Below are positions 6,975 to 43,169 of a stretch of 46,027 bases of DNA, one piece after another. Positions within the stretch are counted from its first letter, which is position 1. Each line of letters opens with the position of its first letter. Source of the DNA: Acidimicrobiia bacterium. GTDB taxonomy: Bacteria; Actinomycetota; Acidimicrobiia; Spongiisociales; Spongiisociaceae. Under the pieces are notes generated by a model. The model was not told the DNA's origin and searched no databases. It saw nothing but the letters and a program-made list of their open reading frames with translations. Location of the stretch: NCBI GenBank assembly GCA_041576165.1, contig JBFGLM010000039.1, positions 1-46,027 of the forward strand, in the 5' to 3' direction. The translations under genes were made by a program, and so were the position numbers.

Positions 6975-9257
6975 TCAGGTCTCGGCCGCCCGGATCGCCG
7001 CCCACACTCGATCCGGGGTGAGCGGCAGGTCGATGTGGCGCACCCCCAACGGCTGGAGCGCATCCATCGCCGCGCTGTGAATTGCCGGCGTAGAGCCGAG
7101 CGTCCCGGCCTCACCGACCCCCTTGGCCCCGAGCGGGTTGAGCGGACTGGGGGTGACGGTGCGGGCGGTATCGATCATGGGCAGGTCGACCGCGGTCGGC
7201 ACCGTGTAGCCGACGAGGTTGCCAGTGAGCGGGTTGCCGTCAGGGTCGAATCGGGCTTCCTCGAACAGCGCCTGGCCGACGCCCTGGGCGACGCCACCGT
7301 GCTGCTGACCTATCACCAGCATCGGGTTGATCACATAGCCGCAGTCGTCCAGCGAGAGGTGCCGGAGCAGGCGGACCCAGCCCGTCTCGCGGTCCACCTC
7401 GACTACCGCAACGTGGGCGCCGAATGGGTAGGTGGCGTCGGCACTGCCGAACGCCTCGTCCGCTTCGAGCGGGTCGTCTTCGTCGAGCGCAGCCTCGGCG
7501 AGGCGGGCCCAGGTAACCTCGGCGCCCGGCACCCCGGCAACGCCCAGGCCATCGCCGACTGGGACGAGATCCGCCGGTGCAGCTTCCAGAAGCCGGCCGG
7601 CCAGGTCCCTGGCCCGTTCGAGGACCCGGTCCGACGCGACCGAAACCGACGATCCCACCAGCTGCAGGGTGCGCGAAGCGTAAGTCCCGGCAACTCCATC
7701 AGGCACGGCATCGGTGTCCGACTGGATGACAACAACCCGGTCCATGGGGACGTTGAAGCGTGCGGCGGCAATCTGAGCGAAGGTTGTTTGGTGGCCCTGT
7801 CCGTGGCTGGAGCCCCCGGCCCGCACCACGATAGTTCCGTCCGGCGCCACCGTGACTCCGCCGGACTCCATCTTGGGAGTCACGCCGATTGTGGTCTCGA
7901 TGTAGGTGGAGACCCCCACCCCGAGCAGCCGGGGATCGCGGTTGACCCGGCGGCGGTCCCGTTCGGCGGTCCACGCCGGCCAGTCGGCGGCGGCGAGGGC
8001 GTGGTCCAGCGCCCGCGCATAATCCCCCGAGTCGTACGAGATCCCGGACTGGACCGGGCGCGGGCCGTCGAACGGCTTGATGAGGTTGCGCCGGCGGACC
8101 TCCACCGGATCGAGGCCTAGTTCGGCTGCGAGCAGATCCATCATGCGCTCGATCATCTGGGTCGCTTCAGGGCGGCCGGCGCCACGATACGGGCCGACCG
8201 GTGTCAGCGTTGTCACCACCCCTTCGGCGCTCAGCGACATCTTGGGGATGTCGTAGACACCGGAGCTCATCATCATCGTGTAGGTGCCGAACGAAGCGGC
8301 AATCGTTGGGTACGCGCCAGCGTCGTTCCGGTACCGGGCTCGCAGGCCGGTGACCCGCCCATCGCGGGTTGCCCCCATCTCGACGTACTGGATCTGGGCG
8401 CGTCCGTGGACCATGTTGACCATGTTCTCGGTGCGCCGCTCCAGCCAGCGGAGGGGCCGGCCCAACCGAGCGGCGAGGGCGGCGACCACCACGTGCTCCG
8501 GGTAGGTTGGCCCCTTGGCGCCGAAGCCACCGCCGACCGCGGGCACGACGATGCGGATGGAGTCCGGTTCGCGCCCCAACGCGGTCGCTAGCACCCGGCG
8601 GGCGCTGGCGGGATCCTGGGTGCCCATTTGGATCAGGAGGCGTTCGTCGTTCGTCACCTGCGCGAAAATGGCGGACGGCTCCATCGGAACGGGTGCGAGC
8701 CGTTGCTGGACGAGGCGTTGGGAGATGACCACCTCGGCGCCGGCCAGCGGATCATCGTCATTCCCGGCGGTCCCGGACCAGGCCAGGTTGGTCCCGGCGT
8801 CGGGGAATACGACCGGTGCCTCGGGGTCCAGCGCCCGCTCAGGATCGGTGACTGGGGGCAGAGGGTCGATATCCACCCAGACCTGGCCGGCGGCGTCCAC
8901 CGCCGCCCTCTCGGATGACGCCAGTACGACTGCAATCGGATCCCCGACGTAGCGGACATGTCTGGAGACGAGTACGGGGCGTGAAAAATCCGTCGAAATC
9001 ATCGGCGGTGGAGTGATCGAGATGCCCAGGTCGTCTTGGGTGAAAACCGTTGCGCCGTCGGGCACCATCGACGTGTCGATCCCGGTGATCAGGCCGTGGG
9101 CAACGCTTGCGCGGACGAAGGCCGCATGGAGCATTCCCGCGGCGGTCAGATCGCCGGTATAGGCCCGGCGGCCGCGGACCAAATCCGGATCCTCCCGGCG
9201 CTTGACGGCGTGGCCGAGGATCGATCCACCGCTCGTCGCCAGCTGGTCAGTAGTCAT
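6975..9257 (-). CDS. Xanthine dehydrogenase-family molybdopterin-binding subunit (CoxL form II-like)
   Basis: VGGGFGAK, PYRGAGRPE, HGQGHQT, GAKGVGE; lacks the AYxCSFR motif of true form I CODH. Confidence 0.9.
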   Translation of the reverse strand: MTTDQLATSGGSILGHAVKRREDPDLVRGRRAYTGDLTAAGMLHAAFVRASVAHGLITGIDTSMVPDGATVFTQDDLGISITPPPMISTDFSRPVLVSRHVRYVGDPIAVVLASSERAAVDAAGQVWVDIDPLPPVTDPERALDPEAPVVFPDAGTNLAWSGTAGNDDDPLAGAEVVISQRLVQQRLAPVPMEPSAIFAQVTNDERLLIQMGTQDPASARRVLATALGREPDSIRIVVPAVGGGFGAKGPTYPEHVVVAALAARLGRPLRWLERRTENMVNMVHGRAQIQYVEMGATRDGRVTGLRARYRNDAGAYPTIAASFGTYTMMMSSGVYDIPKMSLSAEGVVTTLTPVGPYRGAGRPEATQMIERMMDLLAAELGLDPVEVRRRNLIKPFDGPRPVQSGISYDSGDYARALDHALAAADWPAWTAERDRRRVNRDPRLLGVGVSTYIETTIGVTPKMESGGVTVAPDGTIVVRAGGSSHGQGHQTTFAQIAAARFNVPMDRVVVIQSDTDAVPDGVAGTYASRTLQLVGSSVSVASDRVLERARDLAGRLLEAAPADLVPVGDGLGVAGVPGAEVTWARLAEAALDEDDPLEADEAFGSADATYPFGAHVAVVEVDRETGWVRLLRHLSLDDCGYVINPMLVIGQQHGGVAQGVGQALFEEARFDPDGNPLTGNLVGYTVPTAVDLPMIDTARTVTPSPLNPLGAKGVGEAGTLGSTPAIHSAAMDALQPLGVRHIDLPLTPDRVWAAIRAAET

Positions 9258-9434
9258 ACCATCCTGTTGTCCGTCTGCTCGCCGAACCTAACGCATGGGA
9301 CCCGCAGAGTGCGTGGCCGCATGCATCGGGTTCGGCGAGTAGTGACGTTGTTCTCAATCCAAGTGGCCGATTGGCCCTCCAATGGCGCTCAGGGTTTGCC
9401 ACAATTGCGTTCATCCTGACCTCGGAGACGCCGC

Positions 9435-12104
<2,670 letters not shown>

Positions 12105-16838: not shown

Positions 16839-19800
16839 TCACGGCAATGGGGTCTGGACCAGTGCCACTCCACTGGGGTCACAGAGAAAGCCTCGCCCGA
16901 CCGGCAGCGCCGGCGGAAGCGCTCGAGGCAATCGGGCGCCCAAGGGTTCGCCATCGACGGCCTCCTGTGGCTGCAGAATGAGCCCTCGCCGACCGGCCCG
17001 CAAGGCCTTCGTCCAGTGCCGCACTGTTGAGCGGAGGGCATGACTACGGGCGGCCGCGATGACATGGAGGCCCGGGCGGCGGGCGGCCAGCACGCCGGCG
17101 ATGGCGTCGTCCACGTCGTCGACCTCGTCTGCGTCGTCGACCAGCACCATCATGTCGGCCCCGGGGTAGAGCCCGAGGATCTCACCGAGGTCCTGGGCGT
17201 TGTCTAGAAGGTGGTCGACGCCGGGTTCGTCTCGCAGTGGGGACTGACGCGGACAGATCCCGACGATGCGACACGCGGGTGCCAGGTGGCGAGCAGCCGC
17301 AGCCAGCGTCGCGAGGACTGTTGATTTTCCCGATCGCGGCGAGCCGGTCACCAGGGCGTGGTCTCCCGCCTCGAGCTGCAAGAGAGCCGGCCCGAGATCG
17401 TGGTCACTGATGCCGATCGGTAGTGCCCAGGCGGTACCGGCCCGGGCACCTGCGTGCATGAGGTCGGCGAGCTTCACGGTGGGCGGCAGCGTGTCCACGG
17501 ATGGAGCCGACCGGGGCAATGTTCCGACCGGTCCGGCCGGGAGAATCTCCTCGTCGGCATATGCCACGACCTGGACGAACCGGCCGGAGACAACGTCGAT
17601 CGCGCGGTTCGGACCCAGCTCGGGCAGGTCGCGGGCCATCACCCCGAGGGCGCCGTAGTCCATGCGATCCGCCAGCTGGAAGACGAGACGGGCCCGGAAC
17701 ACTCCCAGCATCACTCCCGGTATGGATCTGGCTTGATCAGCCGACATCACCGTGTATACGGCGACCGATGGTCCGTCCGCCACGATCCGCTGCAGCGCCT
17801 CTCTGTACTCGAGGTCGACCATTTCATCGAACGACCCCCGAAACCCACTGAGGTCATCGAGCAGCAAGAAGATGCGGGTCCGGGCAGCGCGACTGGCGCG
17901 TCGGTGGGCGATTTCGGAATCCAACATGCGCAGGAGCCGCTGCTGCCGCTCGTTTTCACGGCCGGCGATCACCGCCCCGGCGTGGGGTAGTCCCGCCACG
18001 CAGGTCAGCCCTCCTACCTTGTAGTCGATGGCATAGATGTGGGAGTCGTCGGGGTGGTGCAGTGCTATCCCGGCGGCGATGGCCCGCATGGCGTCGCTTG
18101 GTCCGGCCGGCCCCACGAGCAGCAAGTTGCCGTCGACCGGCGGGTCCCAGGTGAACAGCCGCCGGCGTTGTAGCTCGGGCTCATCGGCGAGACCGAGCAC
18201 CAGGCCGTCTGGAACCGCCTCGCCGGGCGTCGCCAGGTCGGCCGGGACGAGTCGGGCGGGAAGCGGATCCGGCCACGGCCGGCGGGGCGGATCGAAGCCG
18301 GCCTGGATGTTGGCGGTGACGATCGCCCCGACCAGCAGGTCCAGCTCGCTCGGGCCGGTGGCGGTGGGCGGGGGCGGCGGGGGATCATGCATGCTGAATT
18401 TGAACGGGCTCAGCCGGATCCCGGCACCGGCGTCCCCGCAGTGTGGCAGCGTGGCGATGGCCGACTGGAACGCCACGAGCTCGCCGGGTCCCAGCCGCAG
18501 GTAACCGCGGCCGGGTCGGGTCCGGGGGATACGGGCGGCGGCCGGATCGTCGAGCACATCCTTCGAGTCGGCCGCAGTCTGGACCCGCAACGAAATCCGC
18601 AGATTCGTGTTGGCCCGGATGGAGTCCTTGACCACCCCGGACGGCCGCTGGGTGGCGAGGATCATATGGACACCCAGACTGCGCCCCCGTTGGGCGATAT
18701 CGACCAGTGCGTTCATGAAGTCGGGCAGCTCCGCGGCCAGCGCCGCGAATTCATCGACGATCAACACCATCCGGGGCAGCGGGGCGCAATCCTGCGCCGC
18801 ATAGTCGGTGATGTCGGAGGCGCCGGCGGCCCGAAGCCGCTGCTCGCGGTAACGCAGCTCGGCCTCCAGACAGGTCAACGCCCGTGCCCCAAGCTGTTCG
18901 TCGAGATCGGTGACCAGCCCGACGACATGGGGGAGACGGCTGCAGGCATCAAAGGCCGAGCCGCCTTTGTAGTCGATGAGCACGAAGTTGAGGCGCTGTG
19001 GGTCGTACCCGGCGGCCAGACCCGCCACCAGTGCCCGGAGCAGCTCGCTCTTTCCAGACCCGGTGGTTCCGGCGATGAGGCCGTGCGGACCGTCGCGCAC
19101 CAGGTCGACCCGCAGATCTCCTCCCTGGCCCCGACCGATGGCGGCAGCCAGCTCCATTCGTTCCGCAGTGCTCCACCGACGCGTGATCGCGTCGGGAGAG
19201 AGTGTGCCGAGCCCGATCATGGGCACCAGCGGCGCAGTCTCCGGAAGCGACGCGCTGGGGCTGACCGTCTCCGGATCGTCCAGGCGAGCCAGGCGGCGGG
19301 CAAGATGGCGGGCGGCGCCGGTGGTCGCGGTCCACGGTTGCACGATGGTGGGGTCGCCGCCTTGCCCCGGGTCGGACACTCGGAGGAGCTCGCCGTCGAG
19401 TTCAACCAGCTGGGTGCAGGCCCCGGGCAGGTCGGTTCGCCGGGACCGGATGACCACCGTGGCGACAGGGAGGCCGGCGCCGGCGAGCACCTCGCGCTGG
19501 ACTGTTCGCAGCTCGGGCTCCTCGGACTCCATATCGCTGATCAACAGCGTGAGCGGCACATCTCCGTCGTAGGGACCGCGCAGGAAACCCAGAATCGACG
19601 CCGCCTGGTCACTGTCGGCCGCAAGGAGCCGGACCTCGCCGTCGTTGGCCCGCACGTGGGGCAGCCACTTCGCCCAGTCCCATGCAGCTGGATGGTCGGT
19701 GAGGACCGCCAGACGTAGGTCCGCTGGTCCCTGCTGGGCGGCCGCCGCGCAGATCCAGGAACGCACGAGCCCCAACGCCTGATGGCGAGACACTCCGTAG

Positions 19801-20864
19801 ATCCCGATGACCGTCCCGGGTCGCAGGTCGACCTGCAGCGGCACATTTGCCAGCCTGCCTGCCCGATCCAGGATTGCCTGCACTTCGGCCTCGAGCCCGT
19901 CCTCGGCGATACCTGCCCTCCAGGCGAGGGTGCCGGTGCCGATCGGGACGCGCATGAAATCGGGATGTCCGGGCCGCCGCTCCCAGATGCGCGGACTTCC
20001 CCGATCCACCGCGGAGACGAGTTCTGCTGCGGAAGCCGCCGACAGTCGCCGGCGCTGCGCTTCGCGCACGACCAGCTCCTCCAGCGTCCGTTCGAACCGA
20101 ATGAGGTCTTCTGCGAATTGTTCGTCGTGGCGCCGCCGGTCCCGCCACCGGCGGATCCGGTCATCCACCACGTTGCCCACCATCATCAAAGGGCCCATCA
20201 GCGCGAACGCCAGGAACATCACCCGCCCAAAGATGATCGCCATGCCTACGCCGAATCCGGCCGGCAAGACGAGGGAAATGGGACTCAATCGTCGGGTCCT
20301 GGAGCGTTCGGGAGTGCGAGTTGGTGGAGTCAGCGCGACCGCGGGGGGTTGGTCGAGTACGCGGGGCGGGCGGTTGAAGGTCACCGCCCCGGCGGCTGCC
20401 GGACCGGGCGGCTCCGCCGGGCGGAGCCGGAACCGGGCGTTGCCCACGCGCAGGTCATGGCCCTCGGGCAGCTCGCAACCGTCGATCGTGACCGCCGTGA
20501 GGCCGACTACCAACTCAGACCGCCCGGCGGGGGCGTGCCGCCAGCGGATGGCGGCGGGCGCCGCGCCGATGTCGTAACGGCCGACGGCCAGGCGCCACAC
20601 CTGGCCGGCCGGCGGGCCTTCAATGGCGTGCAATTCGAACACGGGCTCGGACCCGGCGGGGGTTGCCTCATCGAGCCGAAGCTCGGCTCCGTGGTACAGA
20701 ACTTTCGCCGCAGCGTCTTCGAGCTCGATGGATCGTCCGTCTACTGTGAGCGTCGCCGGCGGCTCGAGGCCAAGCGCACCCAGCACGTCGCCGACGGTCG
20801 CATTGCCCGCCAGGTCGAGCGTCAGGTCGGCTTGAATCGATCCGTGGACCACACTGACGTGCAT
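16839..20864 (-). CDS. EssC/EccC-like FtsK/SpoIIIE type VII secretion ATPase
   Basis: Possible ubiquitin-like and FHA-like N-terminus, FNRPPR, TM pair, WERRP, GPHGLIAGTTGSGKSE, IDYKGG, IVDEFA, GRSLGVHMILATQRP; second ATPase degenerate; third Walker A GSPRSGKS. Confidence 0.88.
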   Translation of the reverse strand: MHVSVVHGSIQADLTLDLAGNATVGDVLGALGLEPPATLTVDGRSIELEDAAAKVLYHGAELRLDEATPAGSEPVFELHAIEGPPAGQVWRLAVGRYDIGAAPAAIRWRHAPAGRSELVVGLTAVTIDGCELPEGHDLRVGNARFRLRPAEPPGPAAAGAVTFNRPPRVLDQPPAVALTPPTRTPERSRTRRLSPISLVLPAGFGVGMAIIFGRVMFLAFALMGPLMMVGNVVDDRIRRWRDRRRHDEQFAEDLIRFERTLEELVVREAQRRRLSAASAAELVSAVDRGSPRIWERRPGHPDFMRVPIGTGTLAWRAGIAEDGLEAEVQAILDRAGRLANVPLQVDLRPGTVIGIYGVSRHQALGLVRSWICAAAAQQGPADLRLAVLTDHPAAWDWAKWLPHVRANDGEVRLLAADSDQAASILGFLRGPYDGDVPLTLLISDMESEEPELRTVQREVLAGAGLPVATVVIRSRRTDLPGACTQLVELDGELLRVSDPGQGGDPTIVQPWTATTGAARHLARRLARLDDPETVSPSASLPETAPLVPMIGLGTLSPDAITRRWSTAERMELAAAIGRGQGGDLRVDLVRDGPHGLIAGTTGSGKSELLRALVAGLAAGYDPQRLNFVLIDYKGGSAFDACSRLPHVVGLVTDLDEQLGARALTCLEAELRYREQRLRAAGASDITDYAAQDCAPLPRMVLIVDEFAALAAELPDFMNALVDIAQRGRSLGVHMILATQRPSGVVKDSIRANTNLRISLRVQTAADSKDVLDDPAAARIPRTRPGRGYLRLGPGELVAFQSAIATLPHCGDAGAGIRLSPFKFSMHDPPPPPPTATGPSELDLLVGAIVTANIQAGFDPPRRPWPDPLPARLVPADLATPGEAVPDGLVLGLADEPELQRRRLFTWDPPVDGNLLLVGPAGPSDAMRAIAAGIALHHPDDSHIYAIDYKVGGLTCVAGLPHAGAVIAGRENERQQRLLRMLDSEIAHRRASRAARTRIFLLLDDLSGFRGSFDEMVDLEYREALQRIVADGPSVAVYTVMSADQARSIPGVMLGVFRARLVFQLADRMDYGALGVMARDLPELGPNRAIDVVSGRFVQVVAYADEEILPAGPVGTLPRSAPSVDTLPPTVKLADLMHAGARAGTAWALPIGISDHDLGPALLQLEAGDHALVTGSPRSGKSTVLATLAAAARHLAPACRIVGICPRQSPLRDEPGVDHLLDNAQDLGEILGLYPGADMMVLVDDADEVDDVDDAIAGVLAARRPGLHVIAAARSHALRSTVRHWTKALRAGRRGLILQPQEAVDGEPLGARLPRALPPALPVGRGFLCDPSGVALVQTPLP

Positions 20865-21202
20865 CAGAAAAACACCGGTGGCGGTCCAACCGCCGTGTCA
20901 GGGCTTTCGATCGGAGCGGCGGCGGCTCCCGCAGCGGATGCCGCGGCTGCGGCTGCCGCTTCGATCCGAGCCGCTTCTCGGCGGGCCCAGTCGGCCGCCG
21001 CGCGGAGGGTGCCGGCGCCGCGGCGCGCGCCGGCGGCGGCGGCGTCGTACTCAGTCTGGAGCGGGGCGGTCGCATCGCCGGCGAGCGCCGACGGAAGGTT
21101 GTCTCCGGTCGGCTGCAGCCCCGACGACGCGCACTCGTCCAGGTCCGCGGCGAGCCCGTCGAGGCCGGCCGCCACCGTACGGTAGAACGAAGCCGTGGCC
21201 AT
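20864..21202 (-). CDS. Small Ala-rich helical protein, probable WXG100-like partner or substrate
   Basis: 112 aa, GGAGG RBS, stop overlaps the ATPase ATG (TGATG), central LAG at the WxG-equivalent position. Confidence 0.6.
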   Translation of the reverse strand: MATASFYRTVAAGLDGLAADLDECASSGLQPTGDNLPSALAGDATAPLQTEYDAAAAGARRGAGTLRAAADWARREAARIEAAAAAAASAAGAAAAPIESPDTAVGPPPVFF

Positions 21203-21226
21203 CCGGCGCCCTCCCTGCCTCCACGC

Positions 21227-21511
21227 TCAACCGGCGCTGACGTAATACGTGTTGGCCAGGTAGTTGAGATCCTCGCCGTATTTCACCAGCCCCGCTGAGT
21301 TGGCGGCCATGAACTCAGAGAGGTTGTTGAGGTGGGGCATGGCCTCTTCCACCAGTCCGGCGAACTGATCGGACGCAATCGCCTCCCACGATTCCTGCAG
21401 GGTTGCCACTGCGCCCTGAATGCTGTGCAGCAGCGTGCTCATGTCCCCGCTCCACGCTGCGAAGTTGTTCCCACACTGAATGATGAGATCACCATCGCCC
21501 CGAATCGCCAT
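21227..21511 (-). CDS. WXG100-like protein with a W-E-A variant motif
   Basis: 94 aa, GAAGGAG RBS, central SWEAIASDQF with Trp42; two genes upstream of the FtsK ATPase. Confidence 0.72.
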   Translation of the reverse strand: MAIRGDGDLIIQCGNNFAAWSGDMSTLLHSIQGAVATLQESWEAIASDQFAGLVEEAMPHLNNLSEFMAANSAGLVKYGEDLNYLANTYYVSAG

Positions 21512-21706
21512 GTCGTCTCCTTCCCGTGCCGGTCTCACCGGTCCGTGTCTGGCCTGTGCCGGCTCGCTTGGAGCATATAACGATGTTTAAGAATGTTCAA
21601 GGAAGCAGATTGATAGTCAGTAGCTGATGAGATCACCGCGGGGTGGCGCACCGATCAGCGATGGAATCAGCGGTGGGAGGGCGCCCAGGCGGGCTCGCGC
21701 CTGCCC

Positions 21707-27431: not shown

Positions 27432-27898
27432 CACACGTCCTCGATGTCGATTGACGCCAGCAGCTCGTTGGCGCTGGCCACCAGGGCTTCCCGATCGGTG
27501 TCGGCGACCACGACATACAGGCACCACGCCCGCCCGGACGCCTGGAAGAATCGCTGGACCCCAACCAGGCCCGTCAATGGACGCTGCATTGAGTTCGGAT
27601 CGAAATCCTCTGCGGCAAGTGGAAGAGGCAGACCGACGGTCTCAAACAACGCCTGTCCTACGTCGCGGCGGTTGTACTCGAAGAGCACGATGAGGATGTC
27701 GCCGGCGCGCATTATCTCAACGCCGCCGCTCCCGAAATCGCCCCGCTCCGCGGGAAGCGCAAAGTTGGCAGCGTGCAGAACTGCGTTGGTTTGCTCGCCT
27801 GTGCCGTCGGCGGCCAGCGCCGACGTGTTGGCGAACCTTCGGTAGATCTCTGCATCCCATCCGTCGGGTAGGTCGATGGTGATCCCGCCCCCTTGCAT
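27431..27898 (-). CDS. Hypothetical protein in the mau-like operon
   Basis: MQGGGITIDLPDGW...LHAANFALP...GDFGSG; TGATG overlaps at both ends. Confidence 0.75.
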   Translation of the reverse strand: MQGGGITIDLPDGWDAEIYRRFANTSALAADGTGEQTNAVLHAANFALPAERGDFGSGGVEIMRAGDILIVLFEYNRRDVGQALFETVGLPLPLAAEDFDPNSMQRPLTGLVGVQRFFQASGRAWCLYVVVADTDREALVASANELLASIDIEDV

Positions 27899-28572
27899 CA
27901 CGGCCACGCGAGAACTCCGGCCGCTACGAGCATCACCACCAGCTGAGCCGCAACCGCGGATCGGTGGGCGAGGGCGGCCCGGTACTGCATGCGGCGGTGC
28001 AGCTCGCGCAATGCTTCCGGGGTGGTGACGGACGCCACGGACCATAGGACGAGCGCACGGCCCGCACCGAAGACGGCGCCCAGGGATCCACCCATGACCC
28101 AGCTTCCCGACAGCAATGCCAGGGCGAACGTGGCGTAGACCGAGGCGGATGTGACGATCGTCAGAATCCCGGCCCCGAGCTGAAAGCCGTAGCCGGCGCC
28201 ATACACCCATCCCCGGTAGGTCGTGAGCCAATCCTCATTCACCTGGCGTTTGGGGGTCGGCAGCCGGACGACACCAAGGTCGAACAGGACTCCGGCCGCC
28301 ACCACAACGGCGGCGACGGCCGCAGTCCCCGCCGAGCTCATTTCCGACAACAACATGGCGCCGAGCGCGCCGAACAAGCTCCCGGTCAGGACGCCGCCTG
28401 TGATCGAGCCGATGAGGTAGGCAACTGCCGTGACTCCGAAATTCATGTTGCGTGACCGCTCGCCGAGCGGGTGGATGCTGGCCAGCATCGACTCTCCTCA
28501 GGGAGACCAGCTCGATCGAATCGCCCCAGTCATTGCCAGGACGATGGCAGCGCCGAACAGCGCCCCGGGCAT
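27898..28572 (-). CDS. MauF/DsbD-like membrane protein, predicted selenoprotein (UGA at 28500-28498 = Sec25)
   Basis: ATG 28572 overlaps the upstream stop; reads MPGALFGAAIVLAMTGAIRSSWSP-UGA-GESMLASIHPLG in frame into the 27898..28488 ORF; hairpin follows. Confidence 0.75.
28474..28489 (-). promoter_or_regulatory. Candidate bacterial SECIS hairpin
   Basis: GAUGCU-GGCC-AGCAUC starting 8 nt after the UGA; second hairpin CCGCUC-GGC-GAGCGG at 28470-28456. Confidence 0.6.
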
Positions 28573-39892: not shown

Positions 39893-40651
39893 TCACTCCG
39901 TGGCCCGCTCCCACAGTCGCGACATGCCCCCCAGCCACCGGTCCTCATCGTCGGCCTTGCGCCGGACATATTCGGCAACCTCGGGGTGGGGGAGGATGAG
40001 GAAACGTTCGTCGGCCAGCCCATCCACCACTGCGTCGGCGACCTGCGCGGGACTTGCAGGTTCGCCGGAAACGTCCAGTGAGAAGCGCTCCGTCAGCGGG
40101 GTCTCGACCACGAGTGGGCAGACCGCAGACACCCGGATGTTCTCGCCTCGGTGGGTGATGGCCAGCCACTCCGCCAGCGCCAGCGACGCGTGTTTCGTGA
40201 CCGTGTAGGGCAGGCTCGACAGAGACGCCAGCAGCCCGGCGGCGGACACCGTCTGGAGGAGGTATCCGCCCCCGTTGGCGATCATCCCCGGAATGACGGC
40301 CCGGGCCGCGTAGACGTGCGCCATGACATGCAGCTCCCACAGTTGGTGCCATCCGGCGTCCGGCACTTCGAGCCCGCCGTCGATGGAGAAGCCGGCGTTG
40401 GAGACTAAGAGGTCGATCGGCCCGTGCTCCGCCTCCGTGCGTTCCACCAATGCCCGCACCGACGATTCAGCAGTGACGTCGCATTCGACGCCGATTGCAC
40501 CCAGGCGGGATGCCGCCTCAGCGGTTCGCTCGGCCCCGAGATCAGCAATCACGACCGTGCGGGCGCCCTCCGCCAGAAAGCGTTGTGCCAGAGCTGCACC
40601 AATGCCGCTGGCGCCGCCCGTGATGATGCAAATGGTCTGCGCAAGCTCCAT
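39893..40651 (-). CDS. Short-chain dehydrogenase/reductase
   Basis: TGGASGIG, SNAG, YTVTK (YxxxK). Confidence 0.93.
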   Translation of the reverse strand: MELAQTICIITGGASGIGAALAQRFLAEGARTVVIADLGAERTAEAASRLGAIGVECDVTAESSVRALVERTEAEHGPIDLLVSNAGFSIDGGLEVPDAGWHQLWELHVMAHVYAARAVIPGMIANGGGYLLQTVSAAGLLASLSSLPYTVTKHASLALAEWLAITHRGENIRVSAVCPLVVETPLTERFSLDVSGEPASPAQVADAVVDGLADERFLILPHPEVAEYVRRKADDEDRWLGGMSRLWERATE

Positions 40652-40712
40652 GCTCCGACGATAGGGCGGCGGCGGCGGGCGCGTCGGGTGTGAGTGGTGG
40701 CATACTGCATCT

Positions 40713-41402
40713 GTGCGTAGACAGATTCGAGCGTTGCTGGATCACATCGTTCCCGGACCGATGTTCGGAGTCTGGTCGTGGCGATATCTCGACAAATGGC
40801 GGACGGTCAAATTGGTGGCGTCCCGCCGGGTGTGGCGGCTCTACACCAAATTCCATGACGCGTATCCGGTCGGTTCCCAACTGCCCAACATCGATCTGCC
40901 CCGCACCGACGGGAGCCGGGTGAACACTGAAGCCTTCAACGGCGAGAAGCACTTTGTGATCTGGACTGGGGCCATCACCTGACCACCCTTCCGGCGGCAG
41001 TTGCCGCCGATGGAACAGCTCAGGCAGAAGTACTCCGACCGGGACGTCGCGTTCGTGCCCGTCTACGTGCGCGAGCCTCACGCGGGAGAGCACGGCTTCA
41101 CGGAGTACCGCAAGCACGAGAGCTTCGAACACAAGCTCGCCTATGCGGAAGAACTGATCAAGATCAAAGACCTGGAGACCCCGGTCGCAGTCGACGGCAT
41201 GGACGAGGCGGTTCACGCCATCCTCGGCGACCTGCCCAACGTCGTCTACGTCGTCGACAAGGCCGGCACGATCGTTTACAAGGCCCCGTGGTTGGACGCA
41301 GCGAAGGTCGACCGGGTTCTGGCGCAATTGGTGTCGGCCGACGACCCGAGCCGGCCGGTCTGGCCGACAATCGAGACCAAGCACCTCAGCAGCGCGATCT
41401 GA
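40713..41402 (+). CDS. Deiodinase-like thioredoxin-fold selenoprotein (UGA at 40980-40982 = Sec90)
   Basis: ORFs 40713..40982 and 41001..41402 are in frame and read WTGAIT-UGA-PPFRRQLPPMEQL...VYVREPH, matching deiodinase GSxT-U-PxF and VYIxEAH motifs. Confidence 0.85.
40992..41009 (+). promoter_or_regulatory. Candidate bacterial SECIS hairpin
   Basis: CGGCGGC-AGUU-GCCGCCG starting 9 nt after the UGA. Confidence 0.7.
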
Positions 41403-41426: not shown

Positions 41427-42671
41427 TCACGTCTTCGGAGCGCCCACCTCCGCCAGCCTCTTCTCCAGAAACCGTCGCTCCGGGTCGCTGTCGGTACGGT
41501 TCAGCGCTTCCCGATACGCGGCGGCCGCGGCGGCGTGCTGCTGCAGGCGGCGCAACAGGTCAGCCCGGGCCGAGTGGAACAGCCGGTAGTCGCCGAGTTC
41601 ACCGGCCAGTGCGTCGATCTCGGCCAACCCGGCCTCTGGACCCACGGCCATGGCGATAGCCACGGCCCGGTTGAGCTGCACGACCGGCGACGATAGGTGC
41701 CGAGACAGTTCGCTGTACAAACCCACGATCTGGGGCCAGTCCGTCTGGGCCGCGTCGGGCGCCGCACAGTGGAGGTGAGCGATGGCGGCCTGGAGCTGGT
41801 ATGGGCCCGGCCGCCGCAAACTCAGGGCTAGCTCGACCAGTGCGGCACCCTCCTCGATCCTGGCCCGGTCCCACAGCGCCCGGTCTTGTTGCTCGAGCAG
41901 CACGAGGTCGCCGGCAGCATCCGTTCGGGCCACCGCCCGAGCATCGTGCAGCAGCATCAGTGCCAGGAGCCCGGCCACTTCCGGCTCGTCCGGCATCAGG
42001 CCGTACAGGTGGCGGCCGAGCCGGATCGCGTCGGCCGCCAAATCGGCCCGGATCAGCGCGTCACCCGAGGTCGCGGCGTAGCCCTCGTTGAAGATCAGAT
42101 AGATGACGGCCAAGACCGCGGCCAGCCGGTCCGGCTGCTGATGGGCGGGCGGCATCCTGAACGGGATGTTGGCTTCGGTGATCTTGCGTTTGGCCCGGAC
42201 GATGCGCTGGGCGAGGGTGGCTTCCGGGACCAAGAACGCCCGGGCGATCTCAGTAGTGGTCAGACCGCCCACCCCCCGCAGGGTCAATGCCACCTGTGCG
42301 TCGGTCGAGAGTGCCGGATGACAGCACATGAAGATCAGGGCGAGCTGGTCGTCGACTGTGGGCGGCTCGTCGATCATGTCGCCGTCCCTACCCCGCAGGT
42401 CCACCTCGATCTCGGACTGCAGCTCCCGGGCCCGATTTTGCTGGGTCCGCGAGCGGCGGATCCGGTCGATGGCTTTGCGCTTGGCGGTTGTCGTGAGCCA
42501 GGCCCCCGGCCGGTCGGGGATTCCTTCCTCGGGCCAGGTGCGGAGAGCTGCGACGTACGCGTCTTGCAGGGCTTCTTCGGCAAGGTCGAAGTCGCGTAGC
42601 TGCCGGACGAGGGTGGCGAGCACCAGCCGGGTCTCGCGGCGGAAGATTTCGCTGAACTCAGCATCCATCAT
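41427..42671 (-). CDS. ECF42-type sigma factor with a C-terminal TPR extension
   Basis: [49 protein letters not shown]; YciI gene upstream. Confidence 0.92.
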
Positions 42672-42707
42672 CGCGCACACCGCCCGGCGCGGGGTACGCG
42701 GTCGCCA

Positions 42708-43070
42708 TCAGGCCGGCGCCCTGGAGGGGTCGCGTACGGGACGGACCTCCACCGCACCGTATCTAGCCGCCGGCAGCGCGATGGCAGCCTCGATCGCCGC
42801 ATCCAGGTCTTCGACGTCGATGATGTAGTAGCCACCAAGTTGTTCCTCAGCCGTTGTATGTGGCCCGTCCGCAGCCAGGGTTTCACCATTACGCAGCCGG
42901 ATCGTGGTCGCCGACGACGACGGGTGTAGCGCCCGCGCCTCCACCAGGATGCCACGGCGGCCTGCCTCCTCTGAATATGCCTCGTACTGCGCCCACAGTG
43001 TCGCTTGTTCGGGGGTGCTCGGCCCTGGCTCGTCGGCCTCGTTGGTGTAGATCAGCAGCAGATACTCCAC
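42708..43070 (-). CDS. YciI/DGPF domain protein
   Basis: GTG after GGAGG; YLLLIY, DGPHTTAEEQLGGYY, VEVRP. Confidence 0.9.
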   Translation of the reverse strand: MEYLLLIYTNEADEPGPSTPEQATLWAQYEAYSEEAGRRGILVEARALHPSSSATTIRLRNGETLAADGPHTTAEEQLGGYYIIDVEDLDAAIEAAIALPAARYGAVEVRPVRDPSRAPA

Positions 43071-43098
43071 ACAGCCCTCCTCGGCCGTACCAGATTCC

Positions 43099-43125
43099 GA
43101 CGAATGCCACCCAGCGAAATCGACA
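43099..43125 (-). promoter_or_regulatory. ECF42-type promoter of the yciI-sigma operon
   Basis: Minus strand TGTCGA-N17-CGTC, 28 nt upstream of the yciI GTG. Confidence 0.7.
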
Positions 43126-43169
43126 ATCACAGAGGGCGGCGCCCGGGATACTGGGCCGAGCCGCCGGCG

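Follow-up and report, generated by a model that had tools for sequence, protein, structure and literature searches.

Does a pair of adjacent open reading frames in the genome of an Acidimicrobiia bacterium encode two small proteins, or a single protein in which an in-frame UGA is read as selenocysteine (Sec), and what could such a protein do? The locus lies in a window of 46,027 nucleotides, by which we mean the whole stretch of DNA analysed. An earlier note, made from the letters alone, had joined the two frames into a hidden deiodinase-like selenoprotein, pointed to a hairpin behind the UGA and suggested a reductive dehalogenase or a peroxidase-like enzyme. At 40713-41402 on the forward strand, frame 1 runs from a GTG start through 89 codons to a TGA at 40980-40982, and then through 139 further codons to a final TGA. 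Reading the first TGA as Sec yields a 229-aa protein with Sec90 in the motif G-A-I-T-U-P-P-F and the two stretches that the note had named, TGAIT-U-PPF and VYVREPH. The translation contains no cysteine at all, and so no resolving cysteine, as had also been stated.

Protein databases hold this family in pieces. A search for close homologs returned 32 matches among 476 candidates, all of them C-terminal halves of 126-133 aa and one of them the window's own. A search with the N-terminal half returned eight close homologs, all ending exactly at GAIT; six of these are 89 aa long from the same start point, which backs the GTG start. Deiodinase-like selenoproteins of this clade are systematically mis-annotated: all 31 other close-homolog matches and all eight N-terminal matches are stored as halves. 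At the DNA level, a scan of GTDB found 98 relatives, of which 80 loci were retained; together with a tandem second copy in two of these loci and the window itself, they provide 83 Sec-type copies. At the codon corresponding to residue 90, all 83 copies have TGA and none has TAA or TAG, in records whose titles name Actinomycetota, Nitrospinota, Tectomicrobia, Chloroflexota, Binatia, Acidobacteriota and Methylomirabilota. A search of the full library gave 1392 clusters at E <=0.001. Among the 150 matches listed, 122 span position 90, where these distant homologs carry Cys in 106 cases (two of them unrelated CxxC multidomain proteins), Ser in seven and another residue in nine; the 28 non-spanning matches are fragments, four of which terminate at GAIT or GALT. 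Neither of the two outcomes that the earlier note had named as refuting was found: homologs do have U or C at this position, and the two halves fall in one domain rather than in unrelated families. Relative to 14 close relatives, amino acid identity is 50% on the 5' side of the TGA and 54% on the 3' side, with about half of the synonymous sites changed on both sides, and the Met that opens the annotated C-terminal half is present in 17 of the 83 copies. We regard it as nearly certain that the two annotated frames form one protein, as the earlier note had proposed, with Sec inserted at UGA90 through SelB and the hairpin. On the opposite strand, an ORF of 280 aa (40542-41384) has no Pfam match and was taken as a shadow frame.

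The hairpin itself is present as described: at 40992-41009 of the forward strand (CGGCGGC-AGTT-GCCGCCG), seven base pairs enclose an AGUU loop, the stem beginning 9 nt and the loop 16 nt after the UGA. According to the available text of a 2026 review (PMC13188914), the consensus bacterial SECIS (bSECIS) has a loop of 3-9 nt situated 16-37 nt from the UGA, a stem of 4-16 bp, a G in the first two loop positions and a minimum free energy of at most -7.5. The window hairpin agrees with all of these features (4-nt loop, G second, 16 nt from the UGA, 7 bp, -14.1 kcal/mol). As stand-alone evidence it was rejected, given that its folding z against shuffles is -0.8 to -1.9 and that a similar loose bSECIS filter passes 126 of the 1130 TGA trinucleotides (11%) of this 66% GC window. 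Above-chance support comes from conservation in relatives, not from the window hairpin itself. The G at 41000 (+18 after the UGA) is kept in all 83 copies, and a complete six-pair stem occurs in 76 of them, in two registers one base apart (the loop is of the AG(U/G)U type in 47 copies, and GGUC or a similar sequence in 29). Where RRQ follows Sec (50 copies), the codon at +6 is always CAG (75% of Gln codons elsewhere) and that at +5 is CGG in 48 copies (31% of Arg codons elsewhere), while Leu at codon +7 is TTG in 20 of 20 (12% elsewhere). Comparisons of codons for the same residue at +4 to +7 differ in 4 of 56 cases, against 56% and 48% in the flanks; these conservation counts all come from related sequences and are not independent trials. 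Covariation within the close clade appears modest: 97.4% of stem cells are paired, and both this share and the covariation score beat 499 of 500 shuffles, but only two pairs show two-sided changes (matched by 186 of 500 shuffles), and a stem slid by -3 still pairs 90.6% of cells. Across relatives, the alignments indicate a conserved bacterial SECIS with frozen synonymous sites.

Neither selA, selB, selD nor tRNA-Sec was seen in the window, where Rfam, ARAGORN and promoter/terminator scans also returned nothing relevant; 15 relative loci likewise yielded no tRNA-Sec. In one relative locus (L005), selB ends 40 bases from the stop of the selenoprotein gene and is followed by selA; in another (L047), a selB and selA pair lies near the gene. 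Sec decoding in the source organism is therefore inferred; the window also holds a second U/C gene, described below. In L047 an IS3-family element cuts the selenoprotein gene in two beyond roughly residue 118 (8248-10339 of that locus), the remainder lying about 1.3 kb downstream, directly before selB. As far as its available text goes, BSepDB lists FO_M_Nitrospinota_01, the title of relative locus L040, with 54 selenoprotein genes (PMC13326102).

The joined protein matches the Pfam deiodinase family PF00837 at 54.4 bits (cut-off 27; E 1.4e-14) over residues 27-190, that is, across the TGA; the C-terminal half alone reaches E 6.4e-7 and the N-terminal half has no deiodinase match. The profile comparison suggested in the earlier note supports the deiodinase-like assignment, with AhpC-TSA and Redoxin also above their cut-offs. 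A match to the NCBIfam deiodinase family protein NF038285 covers residues 53-191 (E 1.4e-19), and its 70.8 bits lie far under the curated cut-off of 250, so that equivalog identity was rejected; members of this bacterial family have about 347 aa and the window protein is shorter. In a quick, midpoint-rooted tree of 49 of the 83 Sec-type sequences and 95 of the 150 representatives, built without animal sequences, the window protein falls inside an all-Sec clade of 30 rows (SH-aLRT 98) that includes Acidimicrobiia, Nitrospinota/Tectomicrobia-like and Chloroflexota lineages. Owing to this partial sampling, the midpoint rooting and the absence of animals, no direction of Sec/Cys change or of transfer is drawn from it. 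The gene is a new member of the bacterial deiodinase-like selenoproteins, in a distinct clade.

Several features of the relatives may be mentioned here. The nearest Cys clade, a well-supported non-Sec group next to the Sec clade (P0036, P0039, P0042-P0050, P0064, P0085 and P0096), mostly has AMT-C-PPAR, with an N-terminal membrane anchor in 11 of 14 members and Ser at the active site in one. Two loci titled Verrucomicrobia (L006, L013) match the Acidimicrobiia locus L009 in gene order and in 70-89% protein identity, and are possibly mis-binned contigs or the result of recent transfer. Tandem, divergent deiodinase-like selenoprotein paralogs, both with an in-frame TGA, occur at L044:9175-10657 and L046:9971-11459, adjoining AtuA/DUF4387 and EamA genes. 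Searches with the selenoprotein gave no phage match and a single, distant plasmid match.

This kind of protein, including the T-U-PPF motif without a resolving Cys, has been known since 2005. In the accessible part of the original report (PMC1088965), bacterial deiodinase-like selenoproteins from the Sargasso Sea were presumed to have a different, redox function. Two of its four sequences have T-U-PPF, one has T-U-GPF and one U-x-x-C, the last also sharing the LPN loop and late Trp of the window protein. Other common features are the Y-x-R/K-E-x-H loop, a Pro at the position of Dio3 Phe258, a bacterial SECIS of the same type, whose G at +18 is present in three or more of the sequences, and the existence of Cys-containing homologs. 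The window protein differs in having GAIT instead of GSYT or GSIT before Sec and EPH instead of EAH, and in its clade-specific WSWxYL N-terminal arm and C-terminal tail. A GOS survey counted 22 deiodinase-like selenoproteins (PMC2398784, available text). In the 2026 review, the motif given for the family is UxxC, which the window clade lacks, and the function is left largely open (PMC13188914); the available portion of the deep-Sep paper does not mention the family (PMC12013277). The clade may already be catalogued in BSepDB. Literature searches, with most subscription journals outside their coverage, found neither a functional study of a bacterial deiodinase-like protein nor a description of a catabolic gene context for such selenoproteins. 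To a specialist in selenoproteins, a further hidden member would be no surprise. The clade suits functional testing, being small, soluble and free of a TM anchor, and its clean U/C site allows both Sec and Cys versions to be expressed.

A structure model based on a 144-row alignment (mean pLDDT 95.4, pTM 0.92) predicts a thioredoxin-like fold in which Sec sits at the head of helix 91-106 and the N-terminal helices are well ordered. Foldseek ranked mouse Dio3 (4TR3) and Dio2 (9H48) as the top matches of the model, and the best solved-structure matches in a HMMER sequence search were likewise Dio3 and Dio2. In VIA-align, 4TR3 scores Z 17.9 (rmsd 2.2, 158 residues aligned) and 9H48 Z 17.7 (2.6, 163), values with which a Bacteroides ResA/TlpA-like protein ties (2LS5, Z 17.3), whereas the 1-Cys peroxiredoxins AhpE and Bcp reach about 16. 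Dio1-3 share with the window protein this fold, the Sec position and T-U-P-P-F. ResA/TlpA proteins and AhpE/Bcp share the thioredoxin fold, the N-terminal beta-hairpin and a Pro in the loop that precedes the penultimate strands; the window protein differs from them by the absence of CxxC and PxxxTxxC and by the deiodinase insertion.

Residues were mapped onto Dio3 through the HMMER alignment to 4TR3. T89 corresponds to Dio3 Thr169 and is followed by the retained U90-P-P-F. In the deiodinase-type insertion loop (residues 118-135; 41064-41117, forward strand), Y118, E121, H123 and H135 correspond to Tyr197, Glu200, His202 and His219. T89, Y118, E121 and H123 are invariant in the 49 Sec rows and H135 is kept in 45. 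A Ser/Thr/Tyr/Glu/His/His set has been proposed as the deiodinase proton relay (PMC11592359, available text); five of its six members are kept, as in Dio1-3, the Ser being replaced by Ala87. In DIO1, the Thr is essential and this Ser is not (PMC9141512, in part). The relay residues may also act as structural anchors of the loop, according to the accessible text of PMC7506546.

The presumptive substrate pocket is where the protein departs from the animal enzymes. The L174-P175-N176 loop and the invariant W193 (41232-41291, forward strand) stand at Dio3 Tyr257-Phe258-Glu259 and Arg275: the replacement of Tyr257/Phe258 by L174/P175 lies inside the HMMER alignment, and that of Arg275 (Lys in Dio2) by W193 follows from a gap-free extension two residues past its end. 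The start of the Dio AHxxDGW loop is replaced by PHAGEHGF, and DGW is absent. In the part of PMC7506546 available, Tyr257, Phe258, Arg275 and the DGW loop are tied to the thyroxine pocket, and a Phe258Pro mutant of Dio3 shows lowered activity. Where animal deiodinases have Phe, P175 is kept in all 49 Sec rows. We take this position to be the cis-Pro site of the thioredoxin fold. The positions of the proximal and distal deiodinase cysteines (PMC9141512, in part) hold I88 and T156. Any Cys is lacking in 27 of the 49 Sec rows, and a single one is found at position 148 in 14 rows of a Binatia/Chloroflexota group. The residue at +3 after Sec is F in 47 and Y in 36 of the 83 copies, CxxC and UxxC being absent. 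The PxxxTxxU motif of Sec-peroxiredoxins (PMC13188914, available text) is also missing: the window protein reads I-W-T-G-A-I-T-U, with Ile at -7 and Ala at -3, the latter position holding Ala in 57 and Ser in 26 of 83 copies.

The N-terminal arm (residues 1-52; 40713-40868, forward strand) is located where animal deiodinases carry their TM helix and linker. It consists of a PGP-x-x-G-x-WSW-x-YL motif followed by an amphipathic helix at 38-49. The earlier note had called its basic, Trp-rich character unusual: the composition stands (11 K/R, 3 D/E and 4 W), while the G-x-W-S-W-x-Y-L arm turns out to be a clade signature found in 48 of 83 copies. By 19-residue hydropathy, no transmembrane segment was found, with a maximum of 1.08 over the whole protein and 0.72 over residues 1-52; the first 60 residues of the 49 Sec rows reach at most 0.79, with no TM anchor. 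The arm probably caps the active site or forms a dimer.

In the window, the gene has a divergent SDR gene upstream and, downstream, a convergent unit on the reverse strand (41427-43130) made of a YciI gene and an ECF sigma factor with a DUF6596/TPR extension; the stops are about 25 bases apart, with no terminator-like site found by the scan. The gene context of relatives is richer. Within 10.5 kb, an M24-family hydrolase gene of at least 44% identity occurs in 26 of 47 close loci (27 with a 26% match) and a Gfo/Idh/MocA gene in 29, against none of 33 distant loci for either, counts inflated by kinship since one Nitrospinota-like lineage accounts for 23 of the 26 M24 loci and 19 of the 29 Gfo loci. 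Nothing of this M24/Gfo-type cluster is present around the window gene. Identity between the Acidimicrobiia-type and Nitrospinota-type M24 genes (45-49%) matches that of the selenoprotein (44-51%), which fits joint inheritance; Gfo genes are 30-39% alike between lineages. The Acidimicrobiia clusters of relatives further contain SDRs, cyclases, an amidohydrolase, an HpsN-like dehydrogenase, CocE/NonD and other hydrolases, molybdenum hydroxylase subunits, EamA and branched-chain ABC genes, the HisD-like gene being nearer HpsN (4e-114) than HisD (8e-78). Structure comparison of the cluster's M24 and Gfo genes gave generic matches only, and the pathway could not be named. Gene content suggests that these clusters possibly serve small-molecule catabolism, of N-heterocycles or organosulfur compounds, and their recurrence narrows the hunt for a substrate.

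What reaction would such a protein carry out? In the scheme that we favour, SelB would bind the hairpin 16 nt downstream and Sec would be inserted at UGA90, producing a cytoplasmic, soluble, thioredoxin-fold protein. By homology, the nucleophile would be the selenolate of Sec90, located where helix alpha1 starts, and T89, Y118, E121, H123 and H135 would form a hydrogen-bond and proton-relay network as in Dio1-3. The selenolate may then attack an electrophilic halogen or sulfur of a small-molecule substrate while the relay (T89/E121/H135) protonates the leaving carbon, amounting to a two-electron reductive cleavage; the substrate would be an aromatic or N-heterocyclic compound under breakdown, not thyroid hormone. 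Lacking any cysteine itself, the protein would depend on an outside thiol or partner protein to re-reduce its oxidised selenium. That the steps after Sec insertion hold jointly, giving a soluble, externally re-reduced selenoenzyme for reductive bond cleavage, we put at slightly short of an even chance; that the leaving atom is a halogen is doubtful. The boldest version, close to the dehalogenase of the earlier note, makes the Sec-only clade a soluble bacterial reductive dehalogenase with deiodinase chemistry, encoded in a cluster shared across phyla (M24 hydrolase, Gfo oxidoreductase, cyclase and molybdenum hydroxylase), where it would strip iodine or bromine from a natural halo-aromatic or halo-heterocycle; this reading seems rather improbable. 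If true, it would mean a cobalamin-free and flavin-free selenium route to bacterial dehalogenation, and would offer a living model of how thyroid-hormone deiodinases arose. Reductive cleavage as a whole is opposed by the missing catabolic cluster in the window, by the possible role of the relay residues as anchors of the loop, by P175 at the Dio3 Phe258 position and by the tie with 2LS5.

The last two points lead to a single-Sec thiol/disulfide oxidoreductase of the ResA/TlpA/glutaredoxin type, which would reduce mixed disulfides or selenosulfides on proteins or low-molecular-weight thiols. The invariant Pro at the thioredoxin-fold loop, ResA/TlpA proteins close behind in sequence and fold searches, the Redoxin and AhpC-TSA scores and the TlpA-like membrane anchors of the closest Cys clade are all consistent with it. 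However, no copy has CxxC or UxxC, with F or Y at +3 throughout, the Dio insertion with its invariant E/H is unneeded for disulfide exchange, and the Sargasso members filed as deiodinase-like also carry Pro there (PMC1088965, accessible part). We consider this function possible, if on the whole unlikely. 

A one-Sec peroxidase, an antioxidant resembling 1-Cys peroxiredoxins or GPx whose recycling would fall to an AhpD/CMD-type or glutaredoxin partner, is unlikely, and the peroxidase-like option of the earlier note loses ground with the absence of PxxxTxxU (Ile at -7 and Ala at -3 in the window). Its best arguments are the peroxiredoxin-like fold shared with AhpE and Bcp, and gene context: on a Mycolicibacterium plasmid, the gene of a distant Cys-type homolog is flanked by a CMD-family gene on one side and a glutaredoxin gene on the other, and a CMD gene lies near the selenoprotein gene of locus L080. 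The Mycolicibacterium context favours redox-housekeeping functions, disulfide exchange included, for at least part of the deiodinase-like family; among the neighbours scanned in a chosen subset of the close clade, however, no CMD or glutaredoxin gene appeared. The positions of the peroxiredoxin Arg and the GPx Trp-Asn are presumably those of L174/P175, which would also count against a peroxidase.

That the protein is a true iodothyronine or iodotyrosine deiodinase, with thyronine-type substrates, is very improbable. T-U-PPF, the Y-x-x-E-x-H loop and His135 do match Dio1-3, but the protein is not taken for an iodothyronine deiodinase because the thyronine-pocket residues (Arg275 to W193, Tyr257/Phe258 to L174/P175, AHxxDGW to PHAGEHGF), both recycling cysteines and the membrane anchor are all absent. 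Its SECIS, bacterial and in-frame, is a further difference from Dio1-3. Finally, the reading of the TGA as a real stop, leaving a pseudogene or two separate small proteins, could invoke the half-length database entries and the lack of visible Sec machinery in the window, but appears effectively refuted by the alignments, in which TAA and TAG never occur in 83 copies from several phyla, the stop coincides with the catalytic Cys position, both halves are equally constrained, the start Met of the C-terminal half is mostly missing and the SECIS is conserved.

Other candidate selenoproteins came to light during the analysis. The second U/C gene of the window, at 27898-28572 on the reverse strand (TGA at 28500-28498), would encode a DsbD_2 (CcdA/MauF-like) membrane protein with SWSP-U-GESML, and clusters with MauE-like, MauD-like and Cys-rich TAT-signal genes. 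Among 120 homologs listed, 27 match the pattern with Cys at the U site and two more show WSPCG by eye; the other 91 start right after the U site at ML(A/S/T)S, as UGA-truncated genes would. At 14 nt from the UGA, its hairpin loop falls just under the consensus distance. No match to a DsbD_2 selenoprotein family was seen in Table 1 of PMC13188914 or in the available portion of deep-Sep (PMC12013277), and this candidate may be more novel than the deiodinase-like gene. Near the deiodinase-like gene of L080, a GrdB-like candidate hidden selenoprotein carries V-U-PIC (8883-9836), and L011 holds an AhpC/TSA-type candidate on the reverse strand (18527-19200) with an in-frame TGA after FDFGHV. Elsewhere in the window, a reverse-strand gene at 16839-21538 encodes an FtsK/SpoIIIE-domain ATPase of 1341 aa and lies downstream of two ORFs, each about 100 aa long, an arrangement that we take to resemble type VII secretion-like loci.
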